Of a stretch of 21,313 nucleotides of DNA, positions 1 to 21,313 are shown one piece after another. The stretch is from an uncultured Clostridia bacterium (GTDB taxonomy: Bacteria > Bacillota > Clostridia > Christensenellales > Aristaeellaceae). The notes below the pieces were generated by a model. That model was given only the letters and a program-made list of their open reading frames with translations, was not told the origin of the DNA and ran no database searches. Each line of letters begins with the position of its first letter. Position 1 is the first letter of the stretch. The stretch is from contig CALGBY010000108.1 in assembly GCA_937886445.1 (NCBI GenBank), positions 1 to 21,313 of the forward strand. Direction: 5' to 3'. Both the position numbers and the translations under genes were made by a program.

Positions 1-1
1 G

Positions 2-526
2 CTTCTGGACATCGGGCTTCCCTTCTTCGACGGTTACCACTGGTGCCGGGAGATCCGCAAGCGCTCCAACGTGCCCATCATCTTCATCTCCTCCGCCTCG
101 GATAACATGAATATCATCATGGCCATGAACATGGGCGCGGACGATTTCATCGCCAAGCCCTTCGACGGGAGCGTCCTGATGGCCAAGGTGCAGGCGCTTT
201 TAAGGCGCACCTATGATTTTGCGGCCACCGCCCCGGTTTTATCCCACCGCGGGGCCATCCTGCAGACAGCGGACAGCGTCCTTCTTTACGGGGACGAGCG
301 GATCGAGCTTTCCAAAAACGAATTCCGCATCCTCTCCTGCCTTCTGGAAAACAAGGGCAAGGTGGTCAGCCGCGAAAAGCTGATGGAAAGGCTCTGGGCC
401 ACCGATAGCTTCGTGGACGAAAATACGCTCACGGTGAACGTCAACCGCCTCCGGAAAAAGCTCGACGCGGCGGGGCTTTCGGGCTTCATCGCCACCCGCT
501 TCGGCATGGGCTACGTGGTGGAATGA
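2..526 (+). CDS. OmpR/PhoB-family response regulator, BceR/GraR-like (5'-truncated by the window edge)
   Basis: The frame is open from nt 2. The translation ...LLDIGLPFFDGYHWCREIRKRSNVPIIFISSASDNMNIIMAMNMGADDFIAKPFD is the C-terminal half of a REC domain. It is followed by a winged-helix output domain (LSKNEFRILSCLLENKGKVVSREKLMERLW...NTLTVNVNRLRKKL...GMGYVVE*). The stop lies 1 nt before the next ATG, which is typical two-component coupling. Confidence 0.9.
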   Translation, partial: LLDIGLPFFDGYHWCREIRKRSNVPIIFISSASDNMNIIMAMNMGADDFIAKPFDGSVLMAKVQALLRRTYDFAATAPVLSHRGAILQTADSVLLYGDERIELSKNEFRILSCLLENKGKVVSREKLMERLWATDSFVDENTLTVNVNRLRKKLDAAGLSGFIATRFGMGYVVE

Positions 527-527
527 C

Positions 528-1139
528 ATGAAGGAAAGCCCGTTTTTCTTCCGGTGGCTGAAAGGAAAAGCGCCTCTTTTCGGCGCCTTTCTGCTCTTTT
601 CCGCCATCCTCATCGGCTCCTTTGCGCTTTATCATCTGCCGCTTCGGGCGGTGATATACCCGCTTTTTCTCTGCCTTCTGACAGGGTGTATCCTTCTGAT
701 CCCCGATTACCTCAAAAAGCGATCGCTCCATCAGACGTTACGCAGAATGGAAGGCTTCACCTCCGAAATGCTCGAAAGCCTCCCGGAGGCTCTTTCAAGC
801 GAAGGGGAGGATTATCAGGCCGAGACCCTGTTCACCATGATGGATTACCTGTTCCGCCGTCCGCTGGTGGAGGCTTTCACCACCTGGGATTTTGAGGATC
901 ATCAGTGGCTGAAGGCGCCCTCCGGCCTGGTGCATTCCGACGGTACGCCCAAAAAAGCCCTGCTGATGCTGAAGGAAAAGCTGGCGGGGGACTGGCATAC
1001 CAGTGCTGATCTGATCACCGATGAAAACGGCTGCTGCGAGCTGTACGGCTTCCGCGGGGATTATGAGCTGACCTGCGGCGATGCCGCCCTGCCCTTCACG
1101 TTGAAGAAGGATATGGGCGAAACACAGATTCGGCTGTAA
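528..1139 (+). CDS. Chimeric ORF: BceS-type intramembrane-sensing histidine-kinase N-terminus (2 TM) fused in frame to a GH10-like glycoside-hydrolase C-terminal fragment; probable rearrangement remnant
   Basis: Residues 1 to about 100 (FFFRWLKGKAPLFGAFLLFSAILIGSFALY...AVIYPLFLCLLTGCILLIPDYLKKRSL...LPEALSSEGEDYQ) have the layout of BceS/GraS sensors: two TM helices, almost no loop, and a linker. No DHp H-box and no ATPase (N, G1, G2) motifs follow. Instead the tail VEAFTTWDFEDHQWLKAPSGLVHSDGTPKKALLMLKEKLAGDWHTSADLITDENGCCELYGFRGDYEL resembles the C-terminal end of clostridial GH10 xylanase-like proteins. Confidence 0.6.
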   Translation: MKESPFFFRWLKGKAPLFGAFLLFSAILIGSFALYHLPLRAVIYPLFLCLLTGCILLIPDYLKKRSLHQTLRRMEGFTSEMLESLPEALSSEGEDYQAETLFTMMDYLFRRPLVEAFTTWDFEDHQWLKAPSGLVHSDGTPKKALLMLKEKLAGDWHTSADLITDENGCCELYGFRGDYELTCGDAALPFTLKKDMGETQIRL

Positions 1140-1200
1140 GAAAAACCGGGAAGAGAGATCCGGCCGGTATGAAAACGGCCGCACACATTCTTATTTATTC

Positions 1201-1236
1201 AAAGCACCCTGCCCGTTTGGACAGGGTGCTTTTGTG
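1201..1236. terminator. Hairpin terminator (AAAGCACCCTG-N10-CAGGGTGCTTT followed by TGTG)
   Basis: An 11-bp perfect stem (1201-1211 / 1222-1232) has its T-run partly inside the stem. It lies between the convergent genes 528..1139 (+) and 1416..1886 (-). A second small palindromic hairpin, CGGCCG-N9-CGGCCG, lies at about 1162-1182. Confidence 0.6.
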
Positions 1237-1415
1237 ATCCTGAGTCTGTTTCCGCAGCACCGTTCATCCGCCTGACCGGGATCCATGGATACAGGGGGCT
1301 GCCGTTTCCGTACGCGCCCGAAAAAGCCGCGGATGCTGTGACAGCTGACAGATGCGGTTCCGCACCGGGGCGGCGGGCGATCATGCCTGACCGCCTCTTT
1401 CCATCCGTTCCCGGA

Positions 1416-1886
1416 TCAGCCCTTGACGGAAAGCGCTTCTTTGATCAGATCGATCTTTATTTGATCCTGCTTGTTCTTTACATCTTTGCGATAGCTGTCC
1501 TTCAGAGAGGCTTCGTACACCTTCAGATAATCATTCAGGCCCGGCAGACGGTATTTTGCGCCTTCTTCTTCCAGAAACGGAATGCCGTCAGGCTCCACCC
1601 CGGCGAATCCGGTCAGGCTTTCCAGCACGGCAAAGGCCACCGTAACGCCGCCGCGCGTGAAAGCGTGCTCGTGTTCGTCGGTGAGGCGGTAGCCTTCCCG
1701 CTCCATCAGGGCTTTCAAAAGCGCCCACTCCTCTGTCAGGCACTTCTGCGGCAGCAGCACATCGATATCATCGGCGTTCAGGCTTTTCTGCAGTCTTCTT
1801 TCCAGCCCTAAAGAGCCGTAGAGCAGGGGACAGACCGACAGCTGAGCGTTGATCAGCCGGGCAAGCCGCAAAAATTCCGTATACAT
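1416..1886 (-). CDS. Small nucleotidyltransferase-fold protein (Pol-beta superfamily)
   Basis: The N-terminus carries the G-S ... D-x-D signature of Pol-beta-type NTases (LLYGSLGLERRLQKSLNADDIDVLLP). A good SD (GGAGGAAAA) lies 5 nt upstream of the ATG. The substrate cannot be called from sequence. Confidence 0.7.
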   Translation of the reverse strand: MYTEFLRLARLINAQLSVCPLLYGSLGLERRLQKSLNADDIDVLLPQKCLTEEWALLKALMEREGYRLTDEHEHAFTRGGVTVAFAVLESLTGFAGVEPDGIPFLEEEGAKYRLPGLNDYLKVYEASLKDSYRKDVKNKQDQIKIDLIKEALSVKG

Positions 1887-2127
1887 TCCGTTTTCCTCCG
1901 TGTGTTTTTTGATTTACTTTGGGCAGGTCATTCGTCCGGACGGTGAAATCGATCGTTTCACAGATCCCGGCCTGTATCTCCGAGGCAGAGAATTCCCGTG
2001 CCTTGAACAGGCGGATATCCCTGTCTGACGGTATTGTCACACAGATCCCCTCTTCCGTCAATACAGGCAAAACGGACGGACAGCGCCGCCCGGCATCAGA
2101 TTTATTCTTTTCCTGCCGGTGAAATAC

Positions 2128-3930: not shown

Positions 3931-6009
3931 ATGATGACGCATGAGGAAGCCTTTGAACGCGCGAAAAAGATAGTGGATCAAATGACGCTTGAGGAAGCCG
4001 CCTCCCAGCTGCGCTACGGCGCGCCGGCAGTGGAACGGCTGGGCGTTCCCGCCTATAACTATTGGAACGAGGCGTTGCACGGGGTGGCCCGAGCCGGTAC
4101 GGCCACCGTGTTCCCGCAGGCTATCGGCCTCGGCGCCACCTTTGATACGGAGCTGGAGAACAGCATCGGCAAAGTGATCGCAGAGGAGGGCCGTGCCAAA
4201 TACAACGCCCAGAGTGAAAAGGGAGACCGCGACATCTATAAGGGGCTTACCTTCTGGAGCCCCAATGTGAATATCTTCCGTGACCCGCGCTGGGGCAGAG
4301 GCCAGGAGACCTTCGGTGAAGATCCCTACCTTACATCCCGCATGGGCGTGGCGTTTGTCAAGGGGCTGCAGGGCGAGGGCGAGCATCTGAAGGCCGCGGC
4401 CTGCGCCAAGCACTTTGCCGTGCACAGCGGCCCTGAGGCCCTGCGCCATGAGTTTGACGCGGTGGTGGATGAGAAGGACCTGCGTGAGACCTATCTGCCC
4501 GCCTTTGAAGCACTGGTGGGCGAGGCGGATGTGGAGGCCGTGATGGGCGCGTACAACCGCACCAACGGCGAGCCCTGCTGCGGACATAAGAAGCTGATGG
4601 TGGATGTGCTGCGCGGCGAGTGGAAATTCAAGGGCCAGTTCGTGAGCGATTGCTGGGCCATCAAGGATTTTCATGATGCCCATCATGTGACCGATACCCC
4701 CACCGAAAGCGCCGCGCTGGCGCTGAAGATGGGCTGCGATGTGAACTGCGGCTCCACCTATCTGTGCATGCTGGCGGCCTATCAGGAAGGCAAGGTGACG
4801 GAGGAGGAGATCCGCCTCGCCGCTACCCGCGCGCTGATGACCCGTGTACGTCTGGGCGTGCTGGATGGCAGCAGTGAGTACGACAGCATTCCCTATACCG
4901 CCTGCGATACCGATGAAAACGCTGCTGTATCCCTGCAGGCCGCGCGTGAGAGCATGGTGCTTTTGAAGAATGACGGTATCCTGCCTCTTGACGCTGATAA
5001 ATTGACCTCTGTTGCCGTGATCGGCCCGAATGCCGATTCCATCCCCGCTCTGGAAGGCAACTATTCCGGCACCTCCTCCCGCTATGTAACGGTGCTGGAG
5101 GGGATCCGTGAGGCGCTGAAGGGAAAGGCACGCGTGTATTACAGCCTGGGAAGCCACCTGTACAGAGACCGTACAAGCGGCCTAGCCATGGCGGATGACC
5201 GTCTCGCGGAGGCAAAGGCCGTGGCCGAGGCCGCCGATGTGACGGTGCTGTGCCTGGGCCTTGATCCGTCCATTGAGGGCGAGCAGGGCGATACAGGCAA
5301 TGAATTCTCCTCCGGCGATAAAAAGACGCTGGACCTGCCCGATACGCAGAAACGTCTGCTGGAAACAGTGCTTTCCGCGGGCAAGCCGGTCATCGTGCTG
5401 CTGCTTTCCGGAAGCGCTCTGAATGTAACGGAGGGCAATGCGATCCTGCAGTGCTGGTATCCCGGTCAGGCGGGCGGTACCGCCGCGGCGGATATCCTGT
5501 TCGGCCGGGTCTCTCCCTGCGGAAAGCTGCCTGTCACCTTCTATCACAGCGTGGATGATCTGCCCGATTTCTGCGATTACAGCATGAAGAACCGTACCTA
5601 CCGGTACTTTGAGGGCGAGGCGCTGTATCCCTTCGGCTTCGGACTCTCCTATGCGGGATTCAGGTATTCCGACGCTTCCTTCGCGGACGGCAGGGTCACC
5701 GTTACAGTAAAGAACACGGGCAGCATGGCCGCGAAGGCTGTGACTCAGGTGTATGTGAAGGATGAGGAAAGCCCCTTCGCGGTGCGCAATACCAAGCTGT
5801 GCGCCTTCAGCAAGGATCTGCTCGCTCCCGGTGAGGAAAAGCAGATCGAGCTGCCTCTTTCTGATGACGCCTTCGCCTGCTGGGATGAAAACGGCGTAAA
5901 GGCCGTCCGTTCCTCCCGTTTCACCCTGTATGTGGCGGACCGCCAGCCGGATGAGCGCAGCAGCGCGCTTGCAGGCGGCGATGTTCAGAAGATCAGCGTA
6001 ACACTGTAA
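3931..6009 (+). CDS. Glycoside hydrolase family 3 (beta-xylosidase/beta-glucosidase type) with Fn3-like C-terminal domain
   Basis: GH3 N-terminal motifs are present: NYWNEALHGVA, NIFRDPRWGRGQETFGEDP, KHFAVHSGPE and the nucleophile region GQFVSDCWAI. An alpha/beta sandwich and an Fn3-like tail follow (VTVKNTGSMAAKAVTQVYV). GGAGG lies 9 nt upstream, and the gene starts 23 nt after the upstream gene. Confidence 0.93.
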   Translation: MMTHEEAFERAKKIVDQMTLEEAASQLRYGAPAVERLGVPAYNYWNEALHGVARAGTATVFPQAIGLGATFDTELENSIGKVIAEEGRAKYNAQSEKGDRDIYKGLTFWSPNVNIFRDPRWGRGQETFGEDPYLTSRMGVAFVKGLQGEGEHLKAAACAKHFAVHSGPEALRHEFDAVVDEKDLRETYLPAFEALVGEADVEAVMGAYNRTNGEPCCGHKKLMVDVLRGEWKFKGQFVSDCWAIKDFHDAHHVTDTPTESAALALKMGCDVNCGSTYLCMLAAYQEGKVTEEEIRLAATRALMTRVRLGVLDGSSEYDSIPYTACDTDENAAVSLQAARESMVLLKNDGILPLDADKLTSVAVIGPNADSIPALEGNYSGTSSRYVTVLEGIREALKGKARVYYSLGSHLYRDRTSGLAMADDRLAEAKAVAEAADVTVLCLGLDPSIEGEQGDTGNEFSSGDKKTLDLPDTQKRLLETVLSAGKPVIVLLLSGSALNVTEGNAILQCWYPGQAGGTAAADILFGRVSPCGKLPVTFYHSVDDLPDFCDYSMKNRTYRYFEGEALYPFGFGLSYAGFRYSDASFADGRVTVTVKNTGSMAAKAVTQVYVKDEESPFAVRNTKLCAFSKDLLAPGEEKQIELPLSDDAFACWDENGVKAVRSSRFTLYVADRQPDERSSALAGGDVQKISVTL

Positions 6010-6010
6010 A

Positions 6011-6037
6011 GGAAACGCCGAATAAATCGGCGTTTCC
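6011..6037 (+). terminator. Hairpin immediately after the GH3 stop (possible terminator)
   Basis: GGAAACGCCGA-ataaa-TCGGCGTTTCC is an 11-bp perfect stem. No U-run follows on the + strand, so intrinsic-terminator function is uncertain. Confidence 0.45.
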
Positions 6038-6113
6038 CCAAAAGCAATGGCCGGCCGGTTTCGTGATATAAGGCACGGAATCGGCCGTTTATCAAATGAG
6101 GTAATTTGAAAAC

Positions 6114-6941
6114 ATGGTCGAACTGGGGAATCCGTATTATTTTCTTTTTTTACTGTCCGGTATCGCAATATTTGTTTTGTTCTGGCTGTGCCTGCGCAAA
6201 AAAAGCGAAGACACAAAGAAAAATGTTCTTTTTATCTGGCTGCTACTCAATTTCCTTCTGCACTTTCTGAAGCAGTTGCTCCCGGGGTACGATCTTCCCG
6301 GCACCCTGCACAAATCCACCGCGGAAAATATCTGCGCGGTGAGCACGATGTGCTTTCCGTTCATCATGCTTCTAAAAAAGGATCATCCGCTGCGGGACTT
6401 CATGTTTTTCATCGGCATCACGGGCGGGATGGGCGCTTTTCTGTATCCCACCGAGGCTTTTGGGCGTTCGCTCGGCGAGCCGGACCTGTACCGCTTTTAT
6501 TTCTGCCATTTCACTTTGGGCGCGGTGCCGCTGCTGAGCGCGGCGCTGGGCCTGTACCGGCCGCGAATGAAGCGTTTCTGGGTCATTCCGCTGCTGTTTC
6601 TGTGCTGGGAAGCCGTCATTTTTCTGAATGAGGCGGTGCTGGTCGCGACCGGCATTGTGAACAGCACGCCGGCGCAGTTTTTTGACCGTGATATCCGGAA
6701 CAACGGCTTTGTGTTCGGCCCTACTTCTGATATGGCGGCCCTCGGCAATATTCTCACGGCGGTCGTTCCGTCCTTTATGAAAAAGGATGTTTCCGGGCTG
6801 CTGGGCGGCGGTGAAATGTACTGGCCGGTGCTTTGGCTGCTGATCCCCGGCTTTGTGTATTTTGTGCCTCTCTGGCTTTTGATGTGCCTGCCGCTTTGGC
6901 TCAGAGAAAAGATCACTCACAGGAAAGAGGAAAGCCTATGA
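6114..6941 (+). CDS. Polytopic integral membrane protein, YwaF/TIGR02206-like
   Basis: About 7 hydrophobic segments. The pattern ENICAVSTMCFPFIMLL ... FFIGITGGMGAFLYPTE ... YRFYFCHFTLGAVPLLSA ... YRPRMKRFW parallels the LPLxLCS / F.LGi.GA.qA.LtP / FRFf..H blocks of the YwaF family. Confidence 0.75.
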   Translation: MVELGNPYYFLFLLSGIAIFVLFWLCLRKKSEDTKKNVLFIWLLLNFLLHFLKQLLPGYDLPGTLHKSTAENICAVSTMCFPFIMLLKKDHPLRDFMFFIGITGGMGAFLYPTEAFGRSLGEPDLYRFYFCHFTLGAVPLLSAALGLYRPRMKRFWVIPLLFLCWEAVIFLNEAVLVATGIVNSTPAQFFDRDIRNNGFVFGPTSDMAALGNILTAVVPSFMKKDVSGLLGGGEMYWPVLWLLIPGFVYFVPLWLLMCLPLWLREKITHRKEESL

Positions 6942-8095
6942 CCGAACGGCTGTATTATGATGATTCCTATATGCGGGAGTTTACCGCGCATGTTACCGCT
7001 GCCTGCGAAGCGGACGGGGATACCCTGATCACGCTGGACCGCAGCGCTTTTTACCCGACCAGCGGGGGTCAGCCCTATGATACCGGTGTGCTGATCGATA
7101 CGGCTTCAGGGCAGGCCTTTTCTGTTACCGATGTGGAGGTAAAGGATAACGAGGTATGGCACCGTGTTCGCGGAAAGCTGAAAACGGGCGATGAAGTGAC
7201 CGGAAGGATCGACTGGGAGCGCCGCTTTGACCATATGCAGCAACACGGCGGCGAGCATATGATCGCAGGGGCTTTCTGGAAGCTGTTTGGCGGCACCACC
7301 ATCGGGCTGCATCTGGGAAAAGAGGAAAGCAGTATCGATGTGACGATGCCGGACGGCCGTACGCGTATCACCGGGGAGGAAACCGCCGCGGTGGAGGAAT
7401 ATGTGAACCGGCATATCCAGAACGATGAAAGGATCCGCTGCTTCTTCCCTTCGGAAGCGGAGCTGGAAGCGCTCCCGCTTCGCAAGCCGCCCACGGTGAA
7501 GGAGCATATCCGTATCGTGGAGATCGGCGGATGGGAGCTGGTGGCCTGCGGCGGAACACATCCTTCGCGTACCGGTGAGATCGGGATCGTGAAGATCCTT
7601 TCCGTGGTGCCGGCAAAGGGAAAAGCGAGGGTGAGCTTTGTGTGCGGTATGCGCGCGGTGAGGTATCTTTCGCTCTGCGCGGCGCAGACGGAAATGAGCG
7701 CGCGTCTGCTTTCAGTGCAGCCGGGAGCATTGCTTCACGCGGCGGAGGAACTGAAGGAAAAGAACGCGGCGCTTGAGAAGGAACTGAAAAGCTTCCGTGC
7801 CGGGGAATATGAAAGAATGCTGGAGGAACATGACGGCGTTCTTTATCTTGAACAGGGAGACGCCGCCTGCCTGCAGACGGCGGTGAGCCGGTATATCGCC
7901 GCTCCCGGGCGTGTGGCGCTGTGCGGAGCTTCCGGACGGCTGATTTTCGCGAGAAGCGCCGGGCTTTCGGCGGATATGGCTGTGCTGCTCCGTCAGGTGG
8001 CCCGCGGCGGCGGTAAGCCGGATATGGCGAGCGGCGCCGGCACGGAGGAAAATGTACTGAGAGCGGCTGAGTTGCTGCGTAAAACGGAATTGTAA
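6938..8095 (+). CDS. alaX: Alanyl-tRNA editing protein AlaX-L type (tRNA synthetase second additional domain plus DHHA1-like C-terminus)
   Basis: It has the Zn-binding editing motifs HMQQHGGEHMIAGAF (HxxxH) and ACGGTHP, and a C-terminal GGGKPDMASGAG as in AlaRS/AlaX DHHA1 domains. I chose the ATG at 6938 (MTERLYYDDSYMREF): it has an AGGAAAGAGGAAAG SD and overlaps the upstream stop as ATGA. The longer 6833 start lies inside the membrane-protein gene. Confidence 0.9.
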   Translation: MTERLYYDDSYMREFTAHVTAACEADGDTLITLDRSAFYPTSGGQPYDTGVLIDTASGQAFSVTDVEVKDNEVWHRVRGKLKTGDEVTGRIDWERRFDHMQQHGGEHMIAGAFWKLFGGTTIGLHLGKEESSIDVTMPDGRTRITGEETAAVEEYVNRHIQNDERIRCFFPSEAELEALPLRKPPTVKEHIRIVEIGGWELVACGGTHPSRTGEIGIVKILSVVPAKGKARVSFVCGMRAVRYLSLCAAQTEMSARLLSVQPGALLHAAEELKEKNAALEKELKSFRAGEYERMLEEHDGVLYLEQGDAACLQTAVSRYIAAPGRVALCGASGRLIFARSAGLSADMAVLLRQVARGGGKPDMASGAGTEENVLRAAELLRKTEL

Positions 8096-8150
8096 CATTC
8101 ACAGGCGGGGCGGAATAATCGACTGCAGGTCTTCGTTATATGAATGTAGA

Positions 8151-8250
8151 TTTGGAAAACGAGTTCGGTCGTTTTTCAAACATACATCGGTTCCTCATTC
8201 GGAGGACGGGCAATAAGCCGGTAAACGGCATAAAACGGGAGGATGGGATC
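8151..8250 (+). repeat. Copy B of a conserved intergenic leader element (hairpin, core, GC hairpin, SD)
   Basis: TTTGGAAAACGA-gttcgg-TCGTTTTTCAAA (12-bp stem, 8151-8180) is followed by the core CATACATCGGTTCCTCATTCGGAGG (8181-8205). Next come GCCG-gtaaa-CGGC (8217-8229), AAACGGGAGGA, and the ATG at 8251. The architecture matches 15329..15446 on the minus strand. Confidence 0.7.
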
Positions 8251-8964
8251 ATGAAAAGGAAAACGCGCGGCATAGCCGCCTTCATCGTGCTGATCGTGCT
8301 GTGTCTTTCTCTGCTGCCTGCCGGCGCCGAGGGCGTGCCGGGCAGCGCGCGGCTTTCGAAATTCGTCCACAATGTGACGGTGACGGGAAAGATGGCTCCG
8401 GCGTATTTTGACCCGGATGTGACCTGTTATCTGCTCACTACGGGGCGGGATGTGAATAATGTGTACTTTACCTGCACCACGGAGGATCCCCAGGCCAGCA
8501 TGTATATCAACGGCCAGTATGTGCAGAGCGGCAAAAAGATCCAGGTGGCGTGGATGAATGACAATCCACAGCAGGTGGATATTGAAGTTTTCGGGATCTA
8601 CGGCGATTACAGAAAGTATACCGTGTTTCTGCAGCGCCGCCCCAGCGACAAGCGCACCCGTGTCAGCTCCGGCTATATCACAAAGCTGGCGCAGAAGGAC
8701 GGCGTGACAAAGATCACGGCGGATCTTGTGAATGTGTATTACTCAAACGGCAATATGAGCACCTTCCATAACGATTCCACGCAGCTTTATACCTATCCCT
8801 GCTCCGCGAACTGTGTATTCTATTACGGTACTGTGGATCAGGCTACGCGTGCCACCAGCGCGACGGAGTTTTCCTTCTTTTATACGCAGACCCCCGATCT
8901 ATTGTATCGCTTTGTCTATATCGAGGATGAGATCGTGGCGGTGATGCCGTACGCGGCGGACTGA
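8251..8964 (+). CDS. Secreted hypothetical protein with cadherin-like beta-sandwich domain
   Basis: The ATG at 8251 gives a classical signal peptide (MKRKTRGIAAFIVLIVLCLSLLPAGAEG), with GGGAGGA 7 nt upstream. The mature part (LSKFVHNVTVTG...FDPDVTCYLLTT...VYFTCTTEDPQASMYINGQYVQSGKKIQV...VDIEVFG...YRKYTVFLQR) follows the cadherin-like beta-sandwich pattern common in clostridial surface proteins. The C-terminal half is unassigned. Confidence 0.8.
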   Translation: MKRKTRGIAAFIVLIVLCLSLLPAGAEGVPGSARLSKFVHNVTVTGKMAPAYFDPDVTCYLLTTGRDVNNVYFTCTTEDPQASMYINGQYVQSGKKIQVAWMNDNPQQVDIEVFGIYGDYRKYTVFLQRRPSDKRTRVSSGYITKLAQKDGVTKITADLVNVYYSNGNMSTFHNDSTQLYTYPCSANCVFYYGTVDQATRATSATEFSFFYTQTPDLLYRFVYIEDEIVAVMPYAAD

Positions 8965-9121: not shown

Positions 9122-10354
9122 TTACGGCGTGAATGCGATCGCCGTTATGGTGAACCTTTTCTGTTCGCTTCCCTCCGCCATCCGGATCTCCACGGTATGT
9201 TCGCTTGCCGGTGAGGAAACAAACACCAGCTGGGTCTCGCTTTGCCCCCAGGCACCGGGAATATTCGCGTTCAGCGTCATCACACGCTTTCCGTCGATCC
9301 ACACCTCGGCACTGCCGAAGGCGGAGGAATTGACTGTGCGGTAGGAAATGAGCAGGTTTTTGAAGGAAGCGGTAAAGGTGAGGGGATCCTGCGGGGAGAG
9401 GGTGGAATGTGAGAAGTTTTTCCCGCATACACGGCCCACCGGGATGTTGGAATAGGAGGAGGGATCATCGGTGTTGAAGCCGCCGGCGCTGAAAGAGATG
9501 TCCTCCGGGATGCTGTCCGCGAAAACGCGTCTCATATTCATGTAGGATGTGCCGTACACACTGCGAACGGGGTCCTTCGTTACATCCTGCGCGTCCGTTG
9601 TCCTTTCGTAATCCGTACGGATGGCGGTCATGATACAGTCCGCCATCACCTGATGGCCGAGTGATGTGGGATGATAAACATCAAAGAAGAATTCCTTTTC
9701 TGTCCACTTGTCCCCTACATAGCGGAAGGCGCTGTTATACATGCTTACCATCGTCAGGTTGTAGCGCATACCGATGGGGGAAAGATCGTTCTGCAGGGTA
9801 TAGCCCGAGGGAAACACGCTGAACAGCAGGATCACGGCGGGATCGTTTTCGGCGTGCAGGATGCTTTTCACCATGGATTCATAGCAGCCGTGCCGGGTGG
9901 GATCACTGCCGTCATTGACCGCGTATTCGATGATCACCAGATCCGGCAGTCCGTCATCGTCCTTCACACGGCTTACAACATCGCGCTCATAACGCGTCCA
10001 TCCGAAGGTGGAGGCGGTGCCGCCTACGCCGGCGTTGACCAGCGCGATATTGCTTCCGTCCCCGCAGCCGTACTCCTTCCTCAGCGCGTCAAGCAGGCGC
10101 ATGGCCCAGCATTCGCTGTAGGTGGCCGCGCCGGCTCCCTCGGTGATAGAGCCGCCGATGACCGCCACGGTGATGTTTTCGCCGTTTTTCGCGCGGTCCA
10201 GTACTTTTTTCAGGCGGATATTGCTTCCCTTCATCATCTGGGCGGAGGAGAGCATCCCGCTGTACCAGTCTTCACTTTCCGGAATGCCTTCCGCAAGCGC
10301 GGAGGGAGCAAGGAACAATGCAAACACTGAAAGCAGGGCAAGCAGTTTTTTCAT
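9122..10354 (-). CDS. Secreted SGNH/GDSL-family hydrolase with C-terminal beta-sandwich domain
   Basis: Signal peptide MKKLLALLSVFALFLAPSALA. SGNH blocks are present: block I VIGGSITEG (catalytic Ser), block II NAGVGGT, block III EYAVND, and block V DVYHPTSLGH (D-x-x-H). About 130 aa of beta-rich C-terminus follow, possibly a carbohydrate-binding module. Confidence 0.88.
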   Translation of the reverse strand: MKKLLALLSVFALFLAPSALAEGIPESEDWYSGMLSSAQMMKGSNIRLKKVLDRAKNGENITVAVIGGSITEGAGAATYSECWAMRLLDALRKEYGCGDGSNIALVNAGVGGTASTFGWTRYERDVVSRVKDDDGLPDLVIIEYAVNDGSDPTRHGCYESMVKSILHAENDPAVILLFSVFPSGYTLQNDLSPIGMRYNLTMVSMYNSAFRYVGDKWTEKEFFFDVYHPTSLGHQVMADCIMTAIRTDYERTTDAQDVTKDPVRSVYGTSYMNMRRVFADSIPEDISFSAGGFNTDDPSSYSNIPVGRVCGKNFSHSTLSPQDPLTFTASFKNLLISYRTVNSSAFGSAEVWIDGKRVMTLNANIPGAWGQSETQLVFVSSPASEHTVEIRMAEGSEQKRFTITAIAFTP

Positions 10355-12788: not shown

Positions 12789-13010
12789 TCACAGGCTTTC
12801 CGTTTCCCCGTGGTCTCCCCGGGCGTAGCCCGCGGCCAGAAGGGCTGAAAGCGGCAGAGTACAGGTCTTTTTGGAACGGGAGGTGATATAGGTAAAGGTA
12901 TCTCCCTCCATAAGGACCACAGTGATGTTTCGGTATTTCATATCCTCCGCGAAGAGAACGCGCACCGGGCGGTTATGGCGGAGGGAATAGCGCAGAAAGG
13001 TTTCCGTCAT
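12789..13010 (-). CDS. Small (73 aa) hypothetical protein, translationally coupled to the upstream membrane transferase
   Basis: The ATG overlaps the stop of 13007..15328 (ATGA). The next gene follows after 16 nt with its own AAAGGAAA SD. The sequence (LRYSLRHNRPVRVLFAEDMKYRNITVVLMEGDTFTYITSRSKKTCTLPLSALLAA) has the alternating beta-strand pattern of YolD/WYL-like small barrels. That is a pattern impression only. Confidence 0.6.
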   Translation of the reverse strand: MTETFLRYSLRHNRPVRVLFAEDMKYRNITVVLMEGDTFTYITSRSKKTCTLPLSALLAAGYARGDHGETESL

Positions 13011-15328
13011 TCGGTCTCTCCTCCGTTTTCCGGTATTTCATAGATGCGTATATCCTCATACCCGCCGCTTTCATAAATCAGGCGGCAGCAGCGGTCAAGC
13101 GCGTCCTCATTGACCGGTACAGAACCGTTGGAGCGTTCATAGGGAGATATGTATACATATTCCGCGCCGTACTTTTCCGCAATATCCATGTTGTTTTCCG
13201 GGTCCTCCAGGAAAAGGAGGATGTCGCTCTGCCGTTCCCAGGTATCAAAGCCGTGCCAGTAGAGCCACAGGTCCGGCCCGCACACGATATCCCGTCCCGC
13301 CAGAGCGGATACCGGGTTGATATGCTGTGTCCAGGTGATGAACATGGCGTGTTCCGGCGTGTGCTCCTCAATAAAGGCCGCGGCGTCCGCGTCCTCTTTT
13401 GAGAAGGATTCGTAATCGCTCACGCATTCCCTCGCGATGCTGATCGTGCCTGAAAGGAAGCACACCGCGCAGAACACGGCCGCGATCAGGCGGCGGGAGC
13501 GCAGCCCCTTCATACGGCTGTACAGCTTCAGGGCGTAACGGGCGGCGATCACGCAGGAGATCATATACCATACATAGAAAAGCTTGTTGTTGTCATATTC
13601 GTTGGGCTGAAAGCGTACGCATTCCGCCGGGATGAACACGGCAAACGCGAGATAAGCGAGAAAGCGCGTTTTGCGGTCCTTTTCAAACAGCGCGCAGAGA
13701 AGCAGCAGGAAGGGAAGTCCGATGTTTTTGATGTAGAACCAGAAATAGGCGTCACGCAGGCCTTCCGAGGCGGAATTGTTGACCCAGTTGAACTGCAGCG
13801 TGAGAAAATGCGTGCTGCCGGAGGCCTGACGGAAGGTCCATGTGAGCAGCTGCGGTGCGGCGATGACCACCGTGACGGCGCCGAAGATCAGCCAGCGCAG
13901 GATGCGAAGGGCGCGCCTTTTATCTCTGTTTTCCACAAGGCAGATCAGGGCAAGACACAGGCCTGCCGCGACCGGCGCGAGAAACAGAATGTCCGGCAGG
14001 TTCGCCTCGGGCACCTGCAGCGTGCTGTCCAGCACGGAGAGGATCTGCGGGGCGAAGCGGATGAGCACGAGCAACCCCTCCGCGGCCAGCATGCCCAGCA
14101 AAAGGCCGCGCAGCCTGCGCCCGCCTTTTCCGTGTACGGCGTCATAGACCAGCCCGCCGGCGCATACCAGCCCCAGCGCCAGGAAGGAATGTGTGTGGAC
14201 CATCGGCAGCGCCCCCGCCCATACGGCCATAAGCAGAATGAGACGGATGTCTTTCCTGAGGGTACGGCGCAGATCGGGAGCGGCGGGGGTAATGGCTTTT
14301 CTTTTCCACAGGGCGCGGGAGACCTGACAGGAGAAGCGTCCCTTTATTTTTGCCGGATGCCTGCGGTCAAAACGGCTGCCCGCGGCAAACTCATATACCA
14401 GATACAGGCAGGGAAGCAGCTGACACCAGCCGGCCAGCGTGGTGCGCTGCGGGATGAGCATATCCGCGATCACATTGCTCCAGCGCAGGTTATAGGTAGT
14501 GAATTCCGCGTGGTTGGCCGGTGTCTGATACCAGCCGTCCAGCATCACCTTCAGGCGCTGCCACAGCCCGGTCACGCTCTGCAGCTCATTTTCGGCGTAA
14601 ACACCGTTCTGCACACCGGCCATATCCAAACTGTAAAAAAAGCCCAGACCGCCGTTCAGGAAGAAGAACAGCGCGGCCAGCACGGCTGTGCTCCGCTTCC
14701 TTGCGATCCTTTCCGCCAGAATGATATATCCCGAAAATACGAGGGCTGCCATCAGCACCGAGGGAAAATTGACCGCGAAGCGCAGGGAGCAGCCAAACAG
14801 CATGAAGGAGGCGGACAGGCTGTCCGCGAGGAAAGGATAGGTGAGCAGCTCGCCGGGATAGATGGAATAATCCAACGGTACCTTCGCGTTGCGGAAGGAG
14901 GTGATGATGCCCAAATGCAGGTTCAGATCGCCGTAGGTGCTCTGCCCCACATGCAGGGAGCCGTCCGCCGCCGGATAAATATTATGCGTGATGAACAGAT
15001 ACAGGGAAAGCAGGGTAAGCGGCAGCGCTGTGCAAAGCAATGCCGTACACAGCCGTTTTTCCTTTTCGTCAAAGCGTGACGCTTTTTCGCGGCTGTGCGT
15101 GAAATACGCCGCGCAGCCCAGCAGCAGCAGCGGGAGGAGGGAAAGCAAATGCCCCTTTAGCGTAAAGTCAAACAGGTAGGCACTCAGATAAGGAAGCCAC
15201 ATTTCAAGCAGCAGGCCGAAAGCGACTCCCAGCCAGAGGCGGGCGGTAAAGCGTATACGGGGAAGCAGGCAGCGAACGCAGAATACGCCGCAGCCGAGAT
15301 AGACCAGTGTAAAGAGAATGCCCGCCAT
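13007..15328 (-). CDS. Large polytopic membrane protein, GT-C-fold glycosyltransferase-like (ArnT/PMT/YfhO-type architecture)
   Basis: It has about 14 or more TM segments, a conserved-looking early loop (GQSTYGDLNLHLGIITSFRNAKVPLDYSIYPGELLTYPFLADSL), and a soluble C-terminal domain of about 150 aa. It sits in an operon with GtrA. I prefer the ATG at 15328 (SD GGGGAAGGGGA, and a 5' UTR conserved with copy B). The ORF track's alternative GTG at 15373 would add 15 aa. Confidence 0.85.
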   Translation of the reverse strand: MAGILFTLVYLGCGVFCVRCLLPRIRFTARLWLGVAFGLLLEMWLPYLSAYLFDFTLKGHLLSLLPLLLLGCAAYFTHSREKASRFDEKEKRLCTALLCTALPLTLLSLYLFITHNIYPAADGSLHVGQSTYGDLNLHLGIITSFRNAKVPLDYSIYPGELLTYPFLADSLSASFMLFGCSLRFAVNFPSVLMAALVFSGYIILAERIARKRSTAVLAALFFFLNGGLGFFYSLDMAGVQNGVYAENELQSVTGLWQRLKVMLDGWYQTPANHAEFTTYNLRWSNVIADMLIPQRTTLAGWCQLLPCLYLVYEFAAGSRFDRRHPAKIKGRFSCQVSRALWKRKAITPAAPDLRRTLRKDIRLILLMAVWAGALPMVHTHSFLALGLVCAGGLVYDAVHGKGGRRLRGLLLGMLAAEGLLVLIRFAPQILSVLDSTLQVPEANLPDILFLAPVAAGLCLALICLVENRDKRRALRILRWLIFGAVTVVIAAPQLLTWTFRQASGSTHFLTLQFNWVNNSASEGLRDAYFWFYIKNIGLPFLLLLCALFEKDRKTRFLAYLAFAVFIPAECVRFQPNEYDNNKLFYVWYMISCVIAARYALKLYSRMKGLRSRRLIAAVFCAVCFLSGTISIARECVSDYESFSKEDADAAAFIEEHTPEHAMFITWTQHINPVSALAGRDIVCGPDLWLYWHGFDTWERQSDILLFLEDPENNMDIAEKYGAEYVYISPYERSNGSVPVNEDALDRCCRLIYESGGYEDIRIYEIPENGGETE

Positions 15329-15446
15329 TTTTTCCCCTTCCCCGTTTGCCGCCGGGATGGCGGAACGGTTCACTTATGCGTTGTGCCTCCGGAATAGCAC
15401 CGATGGGCTGTTTGAAGATCGGCCGACACGATCTTCAAACTTGTAC
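15329..15446 (-). repeat. Copy A of the conserved leader element (5' UTR of the envelope operon)
   Basis: Read on the minus strand: GTTTGAAGATC-gtgtcggcc-GATCTTCAAAC (15440-15410), then the core AGCCCATCGGTGCTATTCCGGAGG (to 15386). Next come CCGCC-atccc-GGCGG (15363-15349), AAACGGGGAAGGGGA, and the ATG at 15328. Confidence 0.7.
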
Positions 15447-15452
15447 TAATAT

Positions 15453-15481
15453 ATTATACAAAAAAAGCGTGTTTTTGACAA
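15453..15481 (-). promoter_or_regulatory. Near-consensus sigma-A promoter driving the envelope operon
   Basis: On the minus strand: TTGTCA (15481-15476), a 17-nt spacer, then TATAAT (15458-15453). The predicted start lies a few nt upstream of the copy A hairpin. Confidence 0.75.
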
Positions 15482-18980: not shown

Positions 18981-19018
18981 CGACACGGCATGGCTGAGCC
19001 CTGCAGACGGATCATTTA

Positions 19019-19060
19019 CAAACATACATCGGTGCCTCCTCCGGAGGCTGGTTATCAGCC
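19019..19060 (+). repeat. Copy C of the conserved element (core only)
   Basis: CAAACATACATCGGTGCCTCCTCCGGAGG (19019-19047) matches copy B at 26 of 29 positions by my count. It is followed by a small hairpin GGCTG-gttat-CAGCC (19046-19060, its first two G shared with the core's terminal GG). No SD or start follows. Confidence 0.65.
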
Positions 19061-19338
19061 TGCTCTTTGCGCTGTGCCGCCTGATCCGGGCCGGCCCCGT
19101 AGTGATCCGTCCTTCCGCTTCCGCATGGTACTCTGTTTTCAAACACGCCGCCGTATTTGTATTCATCTGTTTTGCTCATAACCCATAAGCGGTTTTCTGT
19201 ATGAATAGCCGCGGACGGTACAGCCCGGAAGCGGGTGCAGACCGCGTGATCTGTCTGAAATTTCCGCAGCCGAAATTATGACAAAAAACTGTTGAAAAAA
19301 AGAGTGCACTGAAAGTGCATGTAACTCCTGTGTAATAC

Positions 19339-21221: not shown

Positions 21222-21313
21222 CTTTTGGCCCGCCCTCCGGAAGAGGCACCGATGGGCTGGGGCTGTGAAAGAACATATTTCGTGTTCTTTCGCAGCTCCC
21301 TATTAGCATACAA
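21222..21313 (-). repeat. Copy D of the conserved element (hairpin plus core), at the window edge
   Basis: On the minus strand: GGGAGCTGCGAAAGAACA-cgaaata-TGTTCTTTCACAGCCCC (21300-21259), then AGCCCATCGGTGCCTCTTCCGGAGG (to 21234) and GCGGGCCAAAAGG. The core matches copy A at 24 of 26 aligned positions with one gap. Upstream of the hairpin, TTGTATGCTAATA resembles TTGTATAATAT of copy A. Confidence 0.65.

Follow-up and report, generated by a model that had tools for sequence, protein, structure and literature searches.

The 21,313-nt contig of an uncultured Clostridia bacterium analysed here (CALGBY010000108.1, in full length hereafter the window) carries, at 8150-8216 in the 5' untranslated region (UTR) of a gene for a secreted protein with a cadherin-like domain, a hairpin-bearing module that probably belongs to an interspersed repeat specific to the lineage, non-autonomous and active until recently, of which it is one copy. 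An earlier sequence-only reading had seen the second full-length copy of a conserved leader here, spanning 8145-8250 and controlling genes for exported or cell-surface proteins. The mobile-repeat reading rests on two sets of observations. Four copies of the unit lie at unrelated intergenic sites, the unit is missing at the orthologous sites of relatives, and the locus of the cadherin-like gene (locus B) holds 0, 1 or 2 units depending on the relative examined. In addition, the sequence of the unit, chiefly that of its hairpin (P1), is swapped far faster than the flanks with the pairing kept. At the DNA level, these data show a mobile repeat that is non-autonomous. At the RNA level, the most likely effect of the unit may at most be that of a portable 5' stabiliser or translation modulator, and in the reading we favour it is not a ligand- or regulon-specific leader.

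Full units are 66-67 nt long, run from GTTTG to ATAA and are, in the unit alignment, always preceded by AA and followed by G. They consist, in this order, of P1 with GTTTG...CAAAC, a core and a tail (ACGGGCAATAA). P1 is a 31-nt hairpin with a constant foot (GTTTG/CAAAC), a variable inner stem and a loop bearing YCGG, while the core of ~25 nt has the layout AGCC-CATCGG-TGCCTCTT-CCGGAGG and is followed by ACGGGC(A/C)ATAA as the tail. We searched the window and the DNA of relatives and strains using an nhmmer profile built from a hand alignment of the units (MAFFT misaligns the copies that bear indels), and complemented the profile with pattern scans. Where two copies had been proposed, four were found in the window (Table 1): two full ones (units A and B, so that the claim of a second full-length copy holds), one truncated at the 5' side (copy 4) and one with its hairpin replaced (copy 3). 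The repetition of the core is far beyond chance, the 25-mer core (3 mismatches allowed at most) and a consensus of 21 nt, CATCGGTNCCTCNTNCGGAGG, being observed 2-3 times versus 0.00-0.04 times expected in shuffles.

Two of the copies are on the + strand and two on the - strand, and at all three sites with adjacent genes the unit is in sense orientation relative to local transcription. Such a distribution shows no replication-strand bias and points to transcription-linked selection or targeting. The core of unit B ends in GGAGG, similar to a Shine-Dalgarno (SD) sequence, with no start codon 4-12 nt 3' of it. Terminal inverted repeats are lacking, as no complementarity exists between the two ends of the unit, GTTTGAAAAT... 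and ...GGGCAATAA. Across the four sites, the left flanks GTAA, ACAA, TAAA and ATAA have only AA in common, and a possible 3-nt AAG target duplication is indistinguishable from conserved element ends. We also considered the unit as a coding sequence and rejected this, since no frame is open in every copy and stops follow the reverse-strand ATG in several copies.

The orthologous loci do not conserve 8150-8216, the kind of result that the earlier reading itself had named as refuting the leader. The unit is missing 5' of the cadherin-like orthologs at 89, 70, 67, 62 and 47% protein identity. In the last four of these lineages (L002, L004, L006 and L008) a short hairpin and an SD stand upstream of the gene, with neither P1 nor core. 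The closest one (L046, 85% identical in nucleotides and 89% in amino acids) presents a clean empty site, CGTTATATGATTGAATGAA|GTCGCAAAGCGGC, at which the native hairpin GTCGCAAAGCGGC and the SD come straight after CGTTATATGATTGAATGAA. At the ortholog of the unit A gene in L045, the TTGTCA-17-TATAAT promoter is kept and the unit is missing from the 5' UTR. The hidden Markov model of the unit had zero matches in ~60 kb of the relatives' syntenic DNA.

Strain L047, by contrast with the empty sites, carries two head-to-tail units at locus B, which differ from each other in P1, core and tail. Both of its BLAST high-scoring segment pairs against the window overlap exactly on 8151-8217, and this overlap together with the tandem arrangement defines the unit as the 66-67 nt from GTTTG to ATAA. 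The copy number of 0, 1 or 2 among close relatives at locus B is an insertion polymorphism and not the signature of a conserved regulatory leader, and the empty, single and tandem states directly evidence recent activity of the element.

Between strains, the unit diverges much faster than its surroundings. Same-species contigs recovered elsewhere, in other samples, share 98.4-98.5% identity with the window, the module excepted. At locus B, 18 of 72 positions differ inside the unit region versus 15 of 1130 in the flanks (P=3e-18), and at locus A, the site of unit A, 10 of 73 versus 17 of 928 (P=9e-7). The divergence thus amounts to 14-25% in the unit and 1.3-1.8% in the flanks; it is located mostly in P1, and the core is far better conserved than P1 in the unit alignment.

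The pairing of P1 has been kept throughout. Family-wide, its 11 pairs occur in 5 distinct sequences with 55 of 55 cells paired and 3 pairs changed on both sides, and in a shuffling test only 6 of 500 shuffles were equally good. A compensatory example from locus A is the change of GTTTGAAGATCG/CGATCTTCAAAC to GTTTGGAAATG/CATTTCCAAAC. The proposal of a hairpin with free sequence and fixed structure is therefore borne out with respect to pairing (100% of the 11 pairs), but hairpins A and B are not unrelated as had been stated: the foot and the YCGG loop motif are common to both, and only the inner 5-6 bp differ, compensatorily. Two G-T wobbles in P1 correspond to C-A mismatches on the opposite strand. 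Variants of P1 recur at different loci, with the P1 remnant of copy 4 (ACGGATCATTTACAAAC) matching P1 of unit B from strain L041 at 16 of 17 positions and P1 of the second L047 unit resembling that of copy 3 in L044. This recurrence argues for exchange among a pool of copies rather than point mutation at one site.

Both full units are located in 5' UTRs, in agreement with the sequence-only reading, and at nearly the same distance from their promoters. P1 of unit B begins 13 nt after the CGTT of a promoter-like motif that lies outside the repeat, and P1 of unit A begins 12 nt after the TATAAT of a predicted Sigma-70-type promoter, 5' of the ATG at 15328 (- strand) of a gene for a 773-aa polytopic membrane protein. 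The GGAA...CGT motif at locus B is invariant, with fixed spacing and distance, in 6 orthologous loci spanning 47-100% protein identity; 0.4 chance occurrences of the pattern GGAA[GT]A-N16-CGTT are expected per window. The cadherin-like gene likely has a dedicated promoter at 8112-8137, which, judging by the general form of such promoters, looks like one of the extracytoplasmic function (ECF) type.

This motif supersedes the view that locus B has no good -35 element and may be transcribed by read-through from alaX, the gene 5' of the cadherin-like gene, which encodes an AlaX-type editing protein. The weak -10-like TTATAT pointed out in that context overlaps the -10 part of the motif. All of the features previously listed for the leader (stem, core, ACGGGCAATAAG, GCCG/CGGC hairpin, SD and ATG) are present at their positions. 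Together, however, they do not make up one module, since 8217-8250 is native UTR whose small hairpin and SD have equivalents in the empty-site lineage L046 and in other orthologs. An attenuator role is unlikely as well: the T-run of P1 is inside its 3' arm, CAAAC comes after the stem, and no + strand terminator was called in 7950-8350.

The insertion has also affected the annotation of the gene. Open reading frame (ORF) calls of the cadherin-like gene, whose product has 53 homologs in the protein database, run through the repeat from an ATG at 8140 (8140-8250), so that the 37-aa N-terminus is translated repeat. Entries P0001, P0174 and P0178 bear this false N-terminus, the sequence of which varies between strains.

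Table 1. Positions of the repeat copies and of the associated features in the window
Feature	Position	Strand	Basis
Full unit B, 67 nt: P1, core and tail	8150..8216	+	nhmmer, 57 bits, E=2e-16
P1 of unit B, 12-bp stem TTTGGAAAACGA/TCGTTTTTCAAA, loop GTTCGG	8151-8162 / 8169-8180	+	sequence and fold
Core of unit B, CATACATCGGTTCCTCATTCGGAGG, ending in SD-like GGAGG	8181..8205	+	pattern counts versus shuffles
ACGGGCAATAAG	8206-8217	+	directly 3' of unit B core
Tail of unit B (ACGGGCAATAA), ending in ATAA, common to copy 3	8206..8216	+	alignment of units
Full unit A, 67 nt (copy A of the earlier reading)	15374..15440	-	nhmmer, 57.6 bits
Copy 4, truncated: P1 loop, 3' arm and core; without 5' arm and tail	19007..19047	+	nhmmer, 32 bits
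Copy 3: core and tail, with a different hairpin in place of P1	21223..21259	-	nhmmer
Substitute hairpin GAAAGAACA-N7-TGTTCTTTC replacing P1 of copy 3	21267..21291	-	fold
Promoter-like motif GGAA[GT]A-N16-CGTT (window form GGAAT-N17-CGTT), outside the repeat	8112..8137	+	six loci
Native 5' UTR remainder: GCCG-GTAAA-CGGC hairpin (8217-8229), then AAAACGGGAGGA with SD GGGAGGA (8237-8243)	8217..8250	+	orthologs
Secreted protein with signal peptide and Cadherin-like beta-sandwich domain, ATG at 8251	8251..8964	+	Pfam PF12733, E=1.3e-6
Sigma-70-type promoter TTGTCA-17-TATAAT (11/12), predicted driver of unit A and of the 773-aa membrane-protein gene	15453..15481	-	

The swapping of P1 could proceed via gene conversion among many genomic copies or via repeated site-specific insertion. 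For the movement of the unit, a hairpin-recognising enzyme supplied in trans would be the most economical guess, which we make with low confidence; an IS200-family element of the species might be the source of such an enzyme, though its hairpins do not match P1. With full units beginning 12-13 nt after the -10 element, that is ~5-8 nt after the predicted start, and in sense orientation, the unit would make up the initial ~70 nt of the mRNA, at its extreme 5' end. The transcript would thereby acquire a stem-loop of high stability close to its 5' end, and with it an SD-like GGAGG that lacks a start codon. Both features are known to protect Firmicute mRNAs from 5' decay (PMC3997798, PMC4113751).

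Several points weigh against the mobile-repeat reading. Neither terminal inverted repeats nor an unambiguous target-site duplication mark the unit, no cognate transposase was found, and the sample is four loci in one species (~33 kb of species DNA). The sense orientation, the position close to the transcription start site (TSS), the tolerance of G-U pairs in P1 and the conserved core hint at selection on RNA, and a purely selfish element would not need such RNA-level features. Gene conversion is a putative route of the swapping, the proposed stabiliser effect is derived from sequence features, and some predicted folds engage the GGAGG partly in pairing.

We hold a bolder version of the mobile-repeat reading to be possible but doubtful. 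According to it, the unit would represent a new class of hairpin-bearing miniature element free of terminal inverted repeats that homes to the first few transcribed nucleotides downstream of promoters (AA|G), always in sense and perhaps via DNA that is open or being transcribed. To the host it would be of use as a portable 5'-UTR cassette (5' stem-loop plus decoy SD), and its hairpin would be actively re-templated or exchanged between copies, giving strain-specific stems.

As far as the searched collections show, the element is confined to one uncultured Clostridia species. The core pattern, run against GTDB with one genome for each of 185,579 species, gave 31 singleton matches, none of them in the hairpin context of the element; those readable as coding were chance matches inside genes. 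A longer two-gap pattern had 1 chance match in the JGI metagenomes, and the core pattern had zero matches in viral contigs, plasmids and phages. With Rfam 15 at the gathering threshold, no family matched any copy in the whole window and nothing relevant was obtained on 8 related loci; at E<=10, the B region remained empty and the regions of copies A and 3 had only weak, chance-level matches. The protein database, compared with a concatenated six-frame translation of the core, returned 4 candidates with common words, none of which reached a score.

Among the alternatives, the one that survives best, while still being unlikely, is a dedicated cis-regulatory RNA leader, riboswitch-like or protein-binding, of a regulon of exported or cell-surface genes, with P1 as the structural helix and the core as the recognition element. 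It would account for the two full copies lying in 5' UTRs, in sense and 5-8 nt from the predicted starts, for the compensatory changes that keep P1 paired, and for the core being much better conserved than P1. The RNAalifold consensus of the module, a fold suggested at the outset, indeed comprises both P1 and a core helix P2 (CCAUCGG/CCGGAGG), in which two single changes (CATTGG and TTCGGAGG) yield G-U pairs. Of these two helices only P1 is supported by covariation; P2 shows zero double compensatory changes and is broken by CAGGAGG in the second L047 unit and by GGATGG in copy 4 of L044. The module is moreover missing at all orthologous loci, even in the sister lineage with 85% nucleotide identity, and at one site varies from 0 to 2 copies with a tandem insertion. 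Neither an Rfam family nor any of the 185,579 GTDB species provided a counterpart. The suggestion of a regulon shared by exported or surface genes is left without a basis, since two of the four copies, 3 and 4, do not precede a gene for an exported protein. Pairing between the core and the downstream SD was also tried as a general feature and discarded: unit B would allow it, whereas unit A lacks the anti-SD-like CCUC.

The surroundings of copies 3 and 4 bear on a DNA-level alternative. Copy 4 sits 3' of the uvrB terminator, and the window ends 54 nt past copy 3. Homology between the window and L044 stops exactly at the 5' edge of the copy 3 core; in L044, copy 3 has a normal P1, and ~5 nt beyond it starts the left end of an IS200-family element (L044 11424-11562, + strand), just beyond the equivalent of window position 21313, with both contigs ending nearby. 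This left end matches RF01405/STnc490 (69 bits), STnc490 being an antisense RNA to the IS200 5' UTR (PMC4513863), and is 70% identical to the region 5' of an annotated IS200/IS605 tnpA on the C. botulinum plasmid NC_012219. The species accordingly has a single-strand hairpin-dependent transposase, and rearrangements occur at the repeat. The left-end hairpin of the resident IS200-like element (CCCCACGC-TAG-GCGTGGGG) is unrelated to P1. On the window side, the region 21267-21313 (- strand) reads GAAAGAACA-N7-TGTTCTTTC followed by ACAGCCCCAG; the substitute hairpin had zero database matches, and the window-end hairpin, considered as a candidate right end of the resident IS200-like element, does not resemble the hairpin of that element.

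According to the DNA-level alternative, the core, which contains the palindrome TCCGGA, would serve for recombination or attachment or as a regulator's operator, the hairpin a cruciform or single-stranded DNA feature, and the inverted cores at 19027-19047 and 21234-21254 would bracket an invertible or mobile 2.2-kb segment with Hpt and HD-GYP genes. We consider this improbable, more so than a leader. The two cores do constitute an inverted repeat of 21 nt (95% complementarity, at a distance of 2186 nt), inter-strain homology breaks exactly at the edge of one of them with an IS200-family element inserted beside it in L044, and a change in copy 4 (CCTCCGGAGG to CATCCGGATG) keeps a perfect 10-bp palindrome. 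The palindrome is nevertheless not conserved (TTCGGA in unit B, TCAGGA in the second L047 unit), no recombinase gene is in or next to the 2.2-kb segment, and its orientation does not differ between the two strains. The G-T wobbles of P1, which are C-A mismatches on the other strand, and the orientation of the copies with local transcription do not suit a DNA-level site either.

It is very improbable that the copies are paralogous small RNA (sRNA) genes, with copy 3 as a stand-alone sRNA of ~110 nt that ends at ACCGTACACGGTTTTT and was duplicated into two 5' UTRs sharing its binding partner in a decoy-and-target arrangement. A weak terminator-like hairpin with a T-run follows copy 3 with no gene after it, TGCTAAT, which resembles a -10 element, directly precedes it at the end of the contig, and the loop sequence CCUCUU is anti-SD-like; yet the terminator was not called by the terminator scan, L044 has an IS200 end rather than a conserved promoter upstream of copy 3, all copies have the same sense and hence no mutual pairing, and mobility better explains the insertion polymorphism. 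Other identities were set aside as well. Readings of the core or the promoter as Sigma-54, SigH or SigE/K sites misfit by eye in spacing or key bases, the GTT/AAC polarity is reversed relative to attC, and a CRISPR array is contradicted by a palindromic 31-nt part that varies next to a constant 36-nt part and by the lack of cas genes (Rfam CRISPR-DR41, 17 bits, E=1.3).

A few further observations concern the neighbourhood of the copies. A 55-aa ORF across copy 4 (19012-19179, - strand) has as its C-terminus the reverse complement of that copy; a 1-nt indel shifts its frame in L044, and we rejected it as a gene, which it probably is not. The 530 nt that separate uvrB from the Hpt gene also contain a terminator-like hairpin with a T-run at 19305-19319 (- strand), with no minus-strand gene upstream. 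Exact-protein look-ups returned nothing on record for the 773-aa protein or for the HD-GYP regulator.

In the relative L004 (67% identity; 4778-6718), a gene for a GGDEF-domain protein is directly 3' of the cadherin-like gene, and in the window an HD-GYP response regulator is encoded 11 kb from it. The L004 neighbour and the window regulator are hints that the surface protein may be linked to cyclic di-GMP signalling. Elsewhere in the window, a 30-nt inverted repeat (80% complementary) at 9152-9181 and 12975-13004 bounds a 3.8-kb block with a GDSL lipase, an L,D-transpeptidase and a GtrA-like gene. To the left of position 2121, 5' of the phosphoglucomutase gene, window 1-2120 and L041 1-1397 are unrelated; L041 has a 351-aa gene where the window has a 156-aa gene, a strain-specific replacement with no repeat copy at the junction.

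Recognition of the unit prevents the annotation of a mobile repeat as a regulon signal or a riboswitch-like leader. It also puts on record, for an uncultured Clostridia lineage, a small interspersed element that had not been described before and whose hairpin turns over unusually fast yet stays paired. For annotation, the direct consequence is that gene callers translate the unit into a false N-terminal extension of the cadherin-like protein. By landing between a promoter and a ribosome-binding site, the unit offers a natural experiment on how inserted 5' structures act on mRNA stability and translation in Firmicutes, and it may cause the expression of surface-protein genes to differ from strain to strain.

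Of the known elements, small interspersed repeats from Firmicutes and Proteobacteria (BOX/RUP/SPRITE, REP/REPIN and MITE) come closest in kind. We assign the unit to no named family: terminal inverted repeats and a GTAG or CGTC tag are lacking, the arrays seen are head-to-tail and not inverted, and P1 does not match the hairpin of the resident IS200-like element. The works-like resemblance of its putative RNA effect is to the 5' stabilisers of Firmicutes, the aprE and ermC leader stem-loops and the cry3A STAB-SD (PMC3997798, PMC4113751); the transcribed unit would bring a stable stem-loop to within a few nt of the 5' end, together with a strong SD-like GGAGG lacking a start codon. The known stabilisers are fixed parts of particular leaders and not mobile, and the conserved CATCGGTGCC part of the unit is without a counterpart in them. 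With the IS200/IS605 family (IS200: PMC4513863) the unit shares the lack of terminal inverted repeats and of a clear target duplication. Members of this family depend on hairpins and insert, without duplication, 3' of a fixed tetra- or pentanucleotide, whereas the four left flanks of the unit have AA in common; IS200/IS605 elements and their gene-less derivatives, moreover, have similar hairpins at both ends, whereas the unit has one strong hairpin.

REP and REPIN sequences with their RAYT (Y1 HUH) transposases (PMC2817692, PMC3733652, PMC3116915) are likewise palindromic hairpins with a conserved flanking tag, intergenic, multi-copy and clustered, and mobilisation in trans as a single-stranded hairpin is presumed for both. 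REPs are 20-40 nt long, bear GTAG or CGTC at one end (PMC3733652) and typically form inverted pairs (REPINs/BIMEs), while the unit has a GTTTG foot, includes a 36-nt non-palindromic core and tail, and forms head-to-tail arrays; the gene annotation of the window contains no RAYT gene. Bacterial MITEs (PMC10969869), which unlike the unit have terminal inverted repeats, are also small, non-coding and multi-copy, with presence/absence polymorphism at orthologous sites. The pneumococcal small interspersed repeats BOX, RUP and SPRITE (PMC3049150) have no sequence similarity to the unit, BOX being modular (boxA-B-C) and RUP having terminal inverted repeats, whereas the unit is a single 67-nt hairpin-plus-core without terminal repeats, the stem of which is swapped between strains. 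Like the unit, they are short, highly structured, intergenic Firmicute elements restricted to a species, with a number of modules that differs from strain to strain; transcripts often include them as extensions of the 5' or 3' UTR, and they can alter the expression of their neighbours and have no known transposase of their own (PMC3049150).

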